A DNA stretch of 39,122 bases, taken from the IMG/VR virus record IMGVR_UViG_2869924733_000008. The stretch is one strand, 5' to 3'. This DNA is from a virus. Taxonomy: Duplodnaviria > Heunggongvirae > Uroviricota > Caudoviricetes. The notes under the pieces are model-generated. The model was given only the letters and a program-made list of their open reading frames with translations. It searched no databases and was not told the DNA's origin. Below, in pieces: positions 9,410-13,752 of this stretch (position 1 is the stretch's first letter; each line of letters starts with the position of its first letter). The position numbers and the translations under genes were made by a program.

Positions 9410-10347
9410 GTAAGCGCCCCGAGAAGTACGTAGCGTAAGGATTATTTTACAGACGAGAAGTTCCAGGGAAGCAGTTCATGCACTTGGTTCGACGGCCAGT
9501 CATTGAGCTTCTCGATCACTTCGCGCAACCAGTCCTCCGGCTCCACTTCGTTCTGTTTGCAGGTGACCAGCAGACTGTAGATGATCGCCGCACTTTCTCC
9601 TCCCTTGTCTGAACCGAAAAAGAGATAATTTTTTCTTCCAACCGCCACCGATCGTAACGCGTTTTCACCGATGTTGTTGTCTATTTCCACCCAGCCGTCA
9701 CGACAGAACTCGTTCAGCGCATTCCAGTGATTCAGGATATAGTCGAACGCCTTCGCCATCTCCGCATGTTTCGACAGCGTTTTCCTCTGCAACTGTATCC
9801 AGTCGTACAACGACTGCATCAACTGGACGCTTCTGGCTTTTCTGACTGCAAGCCGTTCCTCTGCCGGACTGCCACGTATCTCCGCTTCTATATCGTATAA
9901 CTCTGCTATCCGTCTGAGCGCTTCCTGAGTCATTTCTGTCGGACGGCGCACATCCTCGTCATGGATTTTTCGGCGGGCGTGGGCCAGGCACCCGGCTTCC
10001 TTCACCCGGCCCGCTTCGTACAGTACGTTATAACCTGCATAGGCATCAGCCTGCAGTACGCCCTGATACTTTGCCAGGTGGAGCTGCGGATGTTCTCCTT
10101 TGCGATCTGCCGAATACGCGAACCAGACGGCTGCCGGCAGGGATGAACCCGCATTACGATCATCCCTGACGTATACCCACAGACGACCCGTTTTCGTCTT
10201 TCCGTTCCCCGGGGCCAGTACTTTCACCGGAGTGTCATCTGCGTGCACCTTTCCTGCCTCCAGAACATAGTCATTCAGCGCTATATACAGAGGACGGAGT
10301 TTGTCTGCCATTTCTGATACCCAGCGCACCATGGTATTACGGCTCAG
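9410..10347 (-). mobile_element. IS66-family element, 3' terminal fragment (about 0.94 kb)
   Basis: Terminal sequence GTAAGCG at 9410-9416 reads inward like an IS66-family inverted repeat. The fragment carries only the C-terminal part of a TnpC-like gene and is cut at 10347 by the IS600 left end. Confidence 0.6.
9442..10347 (-). pseudogene. IS66-family transposase (TnpC) gene, C-terminal ~300 codons only
   Basis: Contains [10 protein letters not shown] and other IS66 TnpC-like segments; the N-terminal half is missing because IS600 begins at 10348. Confidence 0.65.
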
Positions 10348-11800
10348 TGAGGTAGCCTGAGTTTAACGGACACTCCTTCCTGAAATAGAATGGCATCAGA
10401 AGGAGCTAATAATGAGCAGAAAAACCCAACGTTACTCTAAAGAGTTCAAAGCCGAAGCTGTCAGAACGGTTCTTGAAAATCAACTTTCGATCAGTGAAGG
10501 CGCTTCCCGATTATCCCTTCCTGAAGGCACTTTAGGACAATGGGTTACCGCCGCCAGAAAAGGGCTCGGTACTCCTGGTTCCCGCACGGTGGCTGAACTG
10601 GAATCTGAAATTCTGCAACTGCGTAAGGCGTTAAATGAAGCTCGCCTTGAGCGAGATATATTAAAAAAAGCAACTGTAGATTCAATTGGTCAACGCAACA
10701 GTTATGTGAAAACATGGGGTTGCGGAGGTTTTTTGAATGAGACGAACATTTACAGCAGAGGAAAAAGCCTCTGTTTTTGAACTATGGAAGAACGGAACAG
10801 GCTTCAGTGAAATAGCGAATATCCTGGGTTCAAAACCCGGAACGATCTTCACTATGTTAAGGGATACTGGCGGCATAAAACCCCATGAGCGTAAGCGGGC
10901 TGTAGCTCACCTGACACTGTCTGAGCGCGAGGAGATACGAGCTGGTTTGTCAGCCAAAATGAGCATTCGTGCGATAGCTACTGCGCTGAATCGCAGTCCT
11001 TCGACGATCTCACGTGAAGTTCAGCGTAATCGGGGCAGACGCTATTACAAAGCTGTTGATGCTAATAACCGAGCCAACAGAATGGCGAAAAGGCCAAAAC
11101 CGTGCTTACTGGATCAAAATTTACCATTGCGAAAGCTTGTTCTGGAAAAGCTGGAGATGAAATGGTCTCCAGAGCAAATATCAGGATGGTTAAGGCGAAC
11201 AAAACCACGTCAAAAAACGCTGCGAATATCACCTGAGACAATTTATAAAACGCTGTACTTTCGTAGCCGTGAAGCGCTACACCACCTGAATATACAGCAT
11301 CTGCGACGGTCGCATAGCCTTCGCCATGGCAGGCGTCATACCCGCAAAGGCGAAAGAGGTACGATTAACATAGTGAACGGAACACCAATTCACGAACGTT
11401 CCCGAAATATCGATAACAGACGCTCTCTGGGGCATTGGGAGGGCGATTTAGTCTCAGGTACAAAAAACTCTCATATAGCCACACTTGTAGACCGAAAATC
11501 ACGTTATACGATCATCCTTAGACTCAGGGGCAAAGATTCTGTCTCAGTAAATCAGGCTCTTACCGACAAATTCCTGAGTTTACCGTCAGAACTCAGAAAA
11601 TCACTGACATGGGACAGAGGAATGGAACTGGCCAGACATCTAGAATTTACTGTCAGCACCGGCGTTAAAGTTTACTTCTGCGATCCTCAGAGTCCTTGGC
11701 AGCGGGGAACAAATGAGAACACAAATGGGCTAATTCGGCAGTACTTTCCTAAAAAGACATGTCTTGCCCAATATACTCAACATGAACTAGGCTGTGTCCC

Positions 11801-12316
11801 TTAATTACGTAAGCGTTGATAAAAGAGTCGGATGCAGCCCAGTTTCACCATCGCCAGGTAATTTCTCGCCGTTTTGTCGTAACGCGTGGCGATGCGGCGA
11901 TATTCTTTCAGCCGCCCAAAGCACCGTTCAACGACATTACGATTGCAGTACGCATCACGATCAAGCTGTGCACGTCCATCCGATGCCATTTTCTCATTTG
12001 ACTTTCGGGGGATTACTGCCTTTATACCGTTATTTTTCAGCTCGTTGCGCAATGCGCGCCCTGAATACGCTTTATCAGCCAGTACCGCATGTCCACGGCG
12101 TTTCATGCTGCCGTTCTGACGCTGAACGCCAATCCCGTCCAGAAGTCGTTGCGCGAACTGGCTTTCATGAGCTTGTCCGGGGCTTAGCACGATATTTAAC
12201 GGGAGGCCACTTCCGTCTGTTGCCAGATGGATTTTGGTGCCAAAACCGCCGCGAGAGCGACCCAGCCCATTATCTCCGTCGATATCGGGATGTTTTTTTG
12301 AGCACCGGCGGCACAT
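11801..12316 (-). CDS. IS5-family transposase orfB (DDE region; probably joined to orfA by frameshifting)
   Basis: Overlaps orfA by about 120 nt in another frame; contains DKAYSG, typical of DDE transposases of this group. Confidence 0.5.
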   Translation of the reverse strand: MCRRCSKKHPDIDGDNGLGRSRGGFGTKIHLATDGSGLPLNIVLSPGQAHESQFAQRLLDGIGVQRQNGSMKRRGHAVLADKAYSGRALRNELKNNGIKAVIPRKSNEKMASDGRAQLDRDAYCNRNVVERCFGRLKEYRRIATRYDKTARNYLAMVKLGCIRLFYQRLRN

Positions 12317-12645
12317 TTCAGCGCCCGGATATTACTGCCATCCAGCGCGGTGGCAGACCAGTCAATAAAGCCGTTTGCATCAAGTAGCGAAAGCAACCTG
12401 TTGAAAATAATATTAATCACGCCTGACTTTGACCATCGGTTAAAGCGGTTATAAACAGTTTTCCATGACCCATATCGTTCGGGTAAATCGCGCCATGGTG
12501 CACCGGAACATAACACCCAGAACATGCCATTGATGATTTTACGGTGCTCAGCCCATGGGCGTCCGGCCCGTGGTGTGGCGGGTTCAGGAGGTAACAGGGG
12601 CTTGATGATGGTCCATGCCTCATCGGGAAGGTCGTAGCGAGCCAT
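12196..12645 (-). CDS. IS5-family transposase orfA (149 aa)
   Basis: Contains ..PWRDLPERYGSWKTVYNRFNRWSKSGV.., a motif typical of the N-terminal part of IS5-family (IS427-group) transposases. Confidence 0.6.
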   Translation of the reverse strand: MARYDLPDEAWTIIKPLLPPEPATPRAGRPWAEHRKIINGMFWVLCSGAPWRDLPERYGSWKTVYNRFNRWSKSGVINIIFNRLLSLLDANGFIDWSATALDGSNIRALKCAAGAQKNIPISTEIMGWVALAAVLAPKSIWQQTEVASR

Positions 12646-12890
12646 AGTTCAATATGTTGTGTAAACAGACAGTTACTATAGCTCAGATGATTAAGGGACA
12701 CAGCCTAGATCTGGTTGCTGCTCAGCTAAACAACAGACCGAGAAAGACACTGAAGTTCAAAACACCGAAAGAGATAATTGAAAGGGGTGTTGCATTGACA
12801 GATTGAATCTACAACAGCGTATTTTGCACAGGAGTCGCTGAAAAATACGCGTTAATCGAACAATGGCGACAACAATTTCCCATTGAAGCG

Positions 12891-13709
12891 ATGTGTCAGG
12901 TATTTGGTGTATCCAGGAGCGGTTATTACAACTGGGTACAGCATGAACCCTCAGACAGAAAACAAAGTGATGAGCGGCTAAAACTGGAGATTAAGGTGGC
13001 ACATATCCGCACTCGCGAAACATATGGAACCCGGCGGCTCCAGACGGAGCTGGCAGAGAATGGCATCATCGTTGGTCGTGACCGACTGGCACGTCTTCGT
13101 AAGGAGCTAAGGCTACGCTGTAAGCAGAAACGCAAGTTCAGAGCGACTACGAACCCGAACCACAATCTGCCAGTTGCGCCAAATCTGCTGAACCAGACGT
13201 TCGCTCCTACAGCACCAAATCAGGTCTGGGTGGCGGACCTGACGTATGTTGCCACACAGGAGGGATGGTTGTACCTCGCTGGCATCAAAGATGTTTATAC
13301 GTGCGAAATTGTCGGCTACGCCATGGGAGAGCGCATGACAAAAGAGCTGACAGGTAAAGCCCTGTTTATGGCGCTCAGGAGCCAGCGCCCACCTGCCGGG
13401 CTAATCCACCACTCTGATCGAGGTTCACAGTACTGCGCATACGATTACCGGGTCATACAGGAGCAGTTTGGTCTGAAAACATCAATGTCGCGTAAAGGTA
13501 ACAGTTACGACAACGCTCCGATGGAAAGCTTCTGGGGAACGCTGAAAAATGAGAGCCTGAGCCACTATCGTTTTAATAACCGGGATGAAGCCATCTCAGT
13601 AATACGGGAATACATTGAGATTTTCTACAATCGTCAGCGTCGTCACTCTCGTCTGGGGAATATCTCCCCGGCAGCCTTCAGGGAAAAATATCATCAGATG
13701 GCTGCTTAA
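12891..13709 (+). CDS. IS600 orfB (transposase catalytic part, 272 aa)
   Basis: [25 protein letters not shown]... with DDE-type motifs (..[11 protein letters not shown].., ..[10 protein letters not shown]..); follows orfA of the same element. Confidence 0.8.
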   Translation: MCQVFGVSRSGYYNWVQHEPSDRKQSDERLKLEIKVAHIRTRETYGTRRLQTELAENGIIVGRDRLARLRKELRLRCKQKRKFRATTNPNHNLPVAPNLLNQTFAPTAPNQVWVADLTYVATQEGWLYLAGIKDVYTCEIVGYAMGERMTKELTGKALFMALRSQRPPAGLIHHSDRGSQYCAYDYRVIQEQFGLKTSMSRKGNSYDNAPMESFWGTLKNESLSHYRFNNRDEAISVIREYIEIFYNRQRRHSRLGNISPAAFREKYHQMAA

Positions 13710-13752
13710 AAAAAGAACAAATGGTAGTGTCCGCTATTGCCAGTACACCTCA

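Follow-up and report, generated by a model that had tools for sequence, protein, structure and literature searches.

The 39,122-nt stretch of viral DNA analysed here (IMG/VR record IMGVR_UViG_2869924733_000008, Caudoviricetes; 'the window' below means this whole stretch) carries a block of nested insertion sequences (ISs) at positions 9410-13752, in the midst of prophage tail genes. The window matches the NCBI entry CP027027.1 at about 3.54-3.57 Mb with 100% identity. The structural genes of the prophage occupy the minus strand, and sitABCD is located immediately to the left of the window, directly beside the tail-fibre end of the prophage. Therefore, the window represents the sit-linked prophage island. 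A review that summarises Fisher et al. 2009 (PMC7545054) portrays the sit island as IS-rich, unstable, prone to deletions and of variable size. Taken as a whole, the window is a defective contractile-tail prophage bordered by sitABCD and by a Rac-type integrase, on a chromosome rich in ISs and of the Shigella/enteroinvasive Escherichia coli (EIEC) type; we infer the label 'Shigella-type' from the IS content and the sit island. The features are compiled in Table 1.

Table 1. Features of the window and IS600 ends near the 3' end of the sheath gene. L001 is the intact same-type prophage of E. coli CFSAN029787; L002 and L032 are the loci of EIEC O121 and EIEC VL40. Positions refer to the window unless L001 is named.
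Feature	Position	Strand	Details
Tail fibres	1-5400	-	
Baseplate genes	5453-9409	-	
Plug gene remnant, Pam3 gp18-like	9187-9409	-	stop codon 9187-9189; codons 28-100 kept (9190-9409, 73 codons)
ISSfl3 right-end fragment	9410-10347	-	938 of 2,754 bp
IS600 left part, positions 1-327	10348-10674	+	left inverted repeat, interrupted orfA; 100% identity to IS600 of L002
IS30, positions 1-1116	10675-11790	+	inserted into IS600 at position 327
ISSfl7 (IS5 family), 914 bp	11791-12704	-	inside IS30 at position 1116
IS30 right end, positions 1113-1221	12705-12813	+	first four bases are the CTAG duplication
IS600 right part, to position 1264	12814-13752	+	orfB, right inverted repeat
Tail sheath remnant, DUF3383 / E217 gp31-like	13753-15064	-	Pfam, PHROG tail sheath, tblastn
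Sheath, neck, head, portal, part of terminase	13753-23752	-	
Dense IS field and a few phage replication genes	from 23755 onward		
Integrase, Rac-type	38283-39122		right end of window
IS600 end, EIEC O121	L001 14820	+	L002 11822-11824; target-site duplication GTT
IS600 end, this window	L001 14844		window 13753 (= L001 14844/45)
IS600 end, EIEC VL40	L001 14897	-	L032 6399-6401, 7666-7668; target-site duplication CCC

The left part of the block, noted as a truncated IS66-family fragment in a preliminary description of this DNA, turned out to be ISSfl3 (99.6% identity to the annotated element, whose full length of 2,754 bp we measured on PSSP01000001, locus L025). It ends at 9410 with a true IS66-family terminus (GTAAGCGCCCC...), exactly where homology to the plug gene stops, and its terminal inverted repeat at 9410-9418 reads GTAAGCGCC, which fits the family start GTAAGCG. 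Since a true ISSfl3 end is joined to the plug gene, ISSfl3 must have transposed into this gene. The fragment codes for residues 233-533 of the 533-residue TnpC and matches PF03050 (DDE_Tnp_IS66, 3.2e-82) and PF13817 (IS66_C, 1.4e-13) over profile positions 42-283 only. The tnpA and tnpB genes and the N-terminal part of tnpC are missing, and the remaining ISSfl3 sequence was found nowhere else in the window. The piece is a fragment and not a functional member of the IS66 family. Its left end is deleted; the predicted 8-bp target duplicate is GCTGATTC. The gene on the other side of the 9409/9410 junction, described earlier as a tail gene that had lost its 5' end, is the plug gene without its first 27 codons (80 bp). 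Its alignment to L001 stops at 9409 (L001 10810), and the remnant still matches Pfam PF22479 (Pam3_gp18) with E=9.7e-15 over profile positions 31-99.

The right part of the block (10348-13752) had been called an IS600 composite. IS600 is indeed present, but the arrangement is more exactly an IS600 split by IS30, which is itself split by ISSfl7. Without its insert, IS600 is a 1,264-bp element with the ends TGAGG...CCTCA, and its positions 1-327 and 324-1264 match the IS600 of L002 at 99.8-100%. The orfB product (272 amino acids) is intact, and orfA is interrupted by IS30. Both IS600 ends are exact: the left one at 10348 (TGAGGTAGCC...) abuts internal ISSfl3 sequence, and the right one is located at 13752 (...CACCTCA). 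The two IS30 parts, when joined, make up 1,221 bp that are 100% identical to the other IS30 copies of the window, and the 2-bp target duplication of IS30 is kept (AC at 10673-10674 and 12814-12815). ISSfl7 is 99.8-99.9% identical over 914 bp to elements annotated as 'IS5-like element ISSfl7', its ends read GCTGTGTCCC...GGGACACAGC, and CTAG is found on both sides (11787-11790 and 12705-12708). Based on these target duplications, IS30 and ISSfl7 are both simple insertions. IS600 lacks a target duplication, since its 3-bp flanks are CAG to the left and TTG to the right; in control IS600 insertions the duplication is present (GTT/GTT in L002, CCC/CCC in EIEC VL40). The IS600 at this locus therefore marks a rearrangement rather than a simple insertion.

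A megablast search against 5,426 complete E. coli genomes brought up EIEC-like strains in which this prophage is intact, and the L001 prophage served as our reference. Positions 5302-9409 of the window correspond to L001 6699-10810 at 99.4% identity, and 13751-23752 to L001 14843-24834 at 99.6%, both with strand and order unchanged. The segment missing between them is L001 10811-14842, or 4,032 bp (with 2 bp of ambiguity). As the alignments are at 99-100% identity, chance is not an issue. The ancestral order begins with the sheath gene (DUF3383; phrog_205, 'tail sheath'), which has lost its last 170 bp. It continues with five genes that are lost completely: the tail tube (147 amino acids; Pfam E217_Gp32, 1.7e-17, and weak similarity to a 'tail tube' chain of known structure), the tail assembly chaperone (134 amino acids; phrog_1932), a 60-amino-acid open reading frame (ORF), the tape measure and a Dit-like baseplate protein (236 amino acids). 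The tape measure (673 amino acids) has full-length matches to tape-measure and 'lytic tail protein' families (phrog_2013, phrog_2276) and an SLT domain at residues 493-598. The order ends with the plug gene (100 amino acids; Pam3_gp18), the first 80 bp of which are lost, and the hub. The assignment of the tube agrees with phage E217, whose gp32 is the tail tube (PMC10329688).

These comparisons bear out the preliminary description in substance. Its boundaries (9410-10347, 10348, 13752 and 9187-9409) all hold in alignments to L001, to annotated ISSfl3 and to the IS600 of L002. The removal of tube, chaperone and tape-measure genes, which it had deduced from their absence, is now demonstrated against intact relatives, and the Dit-like baseplate gene has to be added to the losses. 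The synteny comparison it had proposed, anchored on the sheath and baseplate genes, gives flanks that are collinear with the intact prophage and lack the tube-to-Dit genes between them. Using blastn and tblastn, we found neither a counterpart of the 4,032-bp segment nor any tube or tape-measure gene elsewhere in the window. The tube, chaperone and tape-measure genes are present in L001, L002, L011, L016, L017 and the cultured Pantoea phage PA-1. No intact relative with the gene order of the window came to light: PA-1 and the intact prophages L011, L016 and L017 keep the full order, and none of the relatives of this phage type that were examined naturally lacks the tube or tape-measure genes.

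We conclude, with a probability of nearly nine in ten, that about 4 kb of tail genes in a dead prophage were replaced by nested ISs through a deletion, namely an IS600-associated loss that followed the insertion of ISSfl3. The replaced region has no function of its own and is a scar of genome decay. It might be argued that the tube-to-Dit segment was instead moved elsewhere in the genome by an IS-mediated inversion or translocation. Inversions would be possible through three further IS600 copies that face the other way (23755-27577 and 34485-36971) and through the many other ISs. Nevertheless, the ancestral order and orientation are kept on both flanks, which is not obtainable by a single inversion and therefore argues for a deletion; moreover, the window contains no trace of the segment, and no reciprocal junction was found at its other IS600 ends. 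We consider such a relocation very improbable. Even less weight, close to none, can be given to an assembly artefact, in which repeats collapsed across IS copies would have produced a false join. Repeats of 99-100% identity do crowd the region, but the same junctions occur in four independent long assemblies (CP027027, CP026824, UYIS01000021 and PSSP01000001), and short-read contigs from many samples end exactly at the ISSfl3 and IS600 ends.

On this reading, ISSfl3 first transposed into codon 27/28 of the plug gene. IS600 then came to lie with its left end in tnpC of ISSfl3 and its right end towards the 3' end of the sheath gene. IS30 was already inside this IS600, as the 2.49-kb unit they form is also found at other places in the window and in E. 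coli chromosomes and plasmids that are unrelated. The intervening 4,032 bp of phage sequence and the left 1.8 kb of ISSfl3 were lost. The route of this loss can be proposed with less confidence. We lean slightly towards homologous recombination between two IS600 copies of the same orientation, one in the sheath gene and one in ISSfl3, which would leave a single hybrid copy without a target duplication. The junction has the signature of such recombination: one IS, no target duplication, and flanks collinear with the ancestor. An IS600 in the 3' end of the sheath gene is a realistic precursor, because two EIEC strains carry simple insertions of this kind, O121 (L002) at 25 bp and VL40 at 52 bp from the sheath junction of the window, with the tube and tape-measure genes kept. 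The L002 insertion itself was considered as the parental one and rejected: it occupies a different site, 25-27 bp away, and has its own GTT duplication, and is thus independent.

A one-step adjacent deletion, in which one IS600 (in the sheath gene or in ISSfl3) attacks a nearby site on the same molecule and no second copy is needed, predicts the same end product, including the single IS600, the missing target duplication and the collinear flanks. The sheath junction falls within an 80-bp stretch used independently by IS600 in two other strains, so that it looks transposase-made, and a parent with two copies was not found. On the other hand, IS3-family elements move by copy-out-paste-in through a circle, which gives a second copy and would not give a direct deletion. 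Furthermore, the IS600 at this locus has orfA broken by IS30 and would have needed transposase in trans. We therefore regard adjacent deletion as possible but rather doubtful. Recombination is preferred since IS3-family elements normally yield a second copy and since loss of the DNA between homologous IS copies is well documented as a way in which Shigella genomes decay (PMC7373316).

Several observations weigh against this account. No parental genome, having either a complete ISSfl3 in the plug gene together with the tube and tape-measure genes or two IS600 copies, was found among the 5,426 E. coli genomes, the GTDB representatives and the sampled contigs, with Shigella genomes covered through protein look-ups only. 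For this reason, recombination and one-step adjacent deletion are not told apart. The same applies to the earlier statement that IS66 had been truncated by IS600: the truncation at the IS600 end stands, and insertion followed by recombination is not separable from a deletion in one step. In addition, no single-nucleotide pattern of a hybrid IS600 was seen, the copies in the window being near-identical (1-6 differing positions), and the absence of the tube-to-Dit genes refers to the 39-kb window alone rather than to the whole source genome. Three parental junctions are predicted: CTGCCCCCACAACATTG+TGAGGTAGCCTGAG, the left end of IS600 in the sheath gene with a TTG duplication; CCAGTACACCTCA+CAGCTCCACGCCCTG, the right end of IS600 inside ISSfl3; and GATGGGGCGCTTAC+GCTGATTCAGGCGAATGG, the left end of ISSfl3 in the plug gene with the 8-bp duplication.

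The spread of the structure was surveyed by exact-string matching of junctions across assemblies. The plug/ISSfl3 and ISSfl3/IS600 junctions are present in CP027027 (the window), CP026824, UYIS01000021, PSSP01000001 and AFFZ01000026, and the IS600/sheath junction in the first four of these. The deletion itself is thus found in four long assemblies, with AFFZ01000026 as a fifth that has the two left-hand junctions only. In addition, many short-read contigs of about 4.1 kb are bounded by the ISSfl3 end and the IS110 site, as the structure would give. In AFFZ01000026 the loss is larger, with the right end of an IS30 joined to window position 34296; this is a draft assembly and has to be treated with caution. 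Exact-match scans of GTDB representative genomes for the ISSfl3/IS600 and plug/ISSfl3 junctions gave no match. E. coli NMBU-W12E19 (H21) was considered as a further carrier of the ISSfl3/IS600 junction and rejected, as it has an ISSfl3-like element inside an IS600-like element, a different arrangement.

The same survey partly resolves the order of events. ISSfl7 inside IS30 is present in all five assemblies except PSSP01000001 and AFFZ01000026. Since PSSP01000001 has the deletion without ISSfl7, the deletion preceded ISSfl7. The exact junction strings of an IS110-family element at 3849-5301 occur in CP027027 and UYIS01000021 only, and the element is absent from PSSP01000001 and AFFZ01000026; CP026824 carries it yet has no exact match to the strings, probably owing to indels in the assembly. 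A 1-bp deletion at 14513, which splits the sheath remnant into ORFs of 187 and 254 amino acids, is shared by CP027027 and two draft contigs and is absent from UYIS01000021 and PSSP01000001. CP026824 again gave no exact match, which is uninformative given the indels of that assembly. Judging from these string matches, ISSfl7 (into IS30) and the IS110-family element arrived after the deletion, and the frameshift in the sheath remnant is the most recent change. The preliminary description had deduced at least two successive events. More than one is indeed required, and the number rises to at least four: the IS600-associated deletion and three insertions, namely those of ISSfl3 in the plug gene, of IS30 in IS600 and of ISSfl7 in IS30.

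Decay is not confined to the block. The sheath gene is cut at 13752/13753, with about 56 C-terminal codons gone. As the tube and tape measure are lost and the sheath lacks its C-terminal arm, the prophage cannot build tails. Compared with L001, the baseplate J gene is split by a 4-bp deletion at 6890, and the DUF2213 head gene has a frame-breaking 11-bp insertion (CATCGCCACCA) at 19048-19058. Another IS600 truncates the terminase gene at 23752. The prophage is dead several times over. Beyond the terminase, replication genes survive at 30537-32042 between IS elements, among them a DnaC-like helicase loader at 31296-32042 (NCBIfam PRK12377, 9e-153). Together with the integrase, they suggest that the whole window is one prophage reaching from sit to the integrase.

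Three independent IS600 ends, each in a different lineage, fall within 80 bp at the 3' end of the sheath gene (Table 1), and no consensus is evident among them. This cluster may reflect a regional target preference of IS600. The sheath-tube region is disrupted repeatedly and independently by different ISs in other lineages as well: in L012, L013, L018 and L019 the 5' part of the sheath gene contains an IS66-family element and the tube gene contains IS1, and in L002 (11677-19257) IS600, IS421, IS1 and an IS66-family element all lie within the sheath gene. It is conceivable that the 80-bp stretch is a true IS600 hot spot and that the repeated hits reflect selection to disable the sit-linked tail rather than neutral decay, or else that the 10-kb head-to-sheath block is mobile as a composite element; both ideas strike us as far-fetched. 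The latter was suggested by the layout, since the sheath-to-terminase block at 13753-23752 is bracketed by inverted IS600/IS30 units with their right ends inward and looks like a composite transposon. Its outer flanks (CAG and GGT) show no target duplication and hence no evidence of movement as a unit. For a composite transposon extending over 10348-27577, the same mismatch of outer flanks and the lack of ISSfl3 beyond 27577 led to rejection.

IS600 with IS30 at position 327 occurs three times in the window (10348-13752, 23755-27577 and 34485-36971). An IS2 (24193-25523) further interrupts the second copy, IS30 faces the other way in the third, and only the first carries ISSfl7 inside IS30. 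Outside the window, contiguous matches to the 2,487-bp unit, about 2.49 kb long, were seen in E. coli chromosomes and plasmids that are unrelated and come from human, dog and pig. Either the unit moves whole or position 327 of IS600 is a hot spot for IS30. A solo IS30 with a GT target duplication is located at 33075-34295 (compared with L015 5296-6516), ending at 34295/34296. In AFFZ01000026, this very base (34296) directly follows the right end of the IS30 inside IS600, and all the DNA in between is gone. This coincidence could stem from two uses of one IS30 hot spot, from an adjacent deletion mediated by IS30 or from a draft mis-join.

The IS110-family element (1,453 bp; 398-amino-acid transposase on the plus strand) lies between the wedge (DUF2612) and tail-fibre genes and is a recent insertion, absent from L025 and L015. 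Within 27942-30427, IS2 is split by a 1,159-bp IS630-family element, and a second IS630-like copy (37167-38325), absent from L015, is found just upstream of the integrase gene. A complete 2,754-bp ISSfl3 is present in the tail-fibre region of PSSP01000001 (13890-16643). Its 8-bp flanks are mismatched (GGTAAACA vs GCGAAATC) and the neighbouring fibre genes are truncated, which suggests a second IS-associated deletion in that strain.

As a consequence of the losses, the sit-linked prophage cannot make tails, and it can be neither induced as a phage nor put to use as a tailocin. The exact IS junctions mark one Shigella-type lineage and order its events, and could serve as typing markers. Beyond annotation, the import of the locus is small: it is one more worked example of IS-driven decay.

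Comparison with known systems places both the tail and its fate. The preliminary description had looked to Mu-like or P2-like prophages; the tail module resembles those of E217, Pam3 and PA-1 rather than of Mu or P2. The window shares with them the sheath (DUF3383, E217 gp31), the hub (E217 gp41), the plug (Pam3 gp18), the spike, the sheath initiator, baseplate J and the wedge. In PA-1, the order is sheath, a 441-bp gene, chaperone, a 183-bp gene, a 1.8-kb gene, an 804-bp gene, a 306-bp gene, hub, spike, wedge and J, which is the order of the intact relatives, although the sheath identity is only 52%. Unlike these functional contractile tails, that of the window lacks the tube, chaperone, tape measure and Dit-like protein, and its sheath, plug and baseplate J are broken. 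The prophage remnant linked to sitABCD has a counterpart in the sit pathogenicity island (PMC7545054), for which the review's account offers no gene-level map. The 4-kb deletion with its nested IS structure was not found described in the literature searched. The process behind it is the already known, ordinary IS-driven genome decay of Shigella/EIEC (Hawkey et al. 2020, PMC7373316) at a known unstable island. The same expanded ISs are involved (IS600 and IS2, besides IS30, IS630-like elements, ISSfl3 and ISSfl7), and there, too, genes are interrupted, DNA is lost between IS copies and events become fixed in lineages, so that the locus does not differ in kind.

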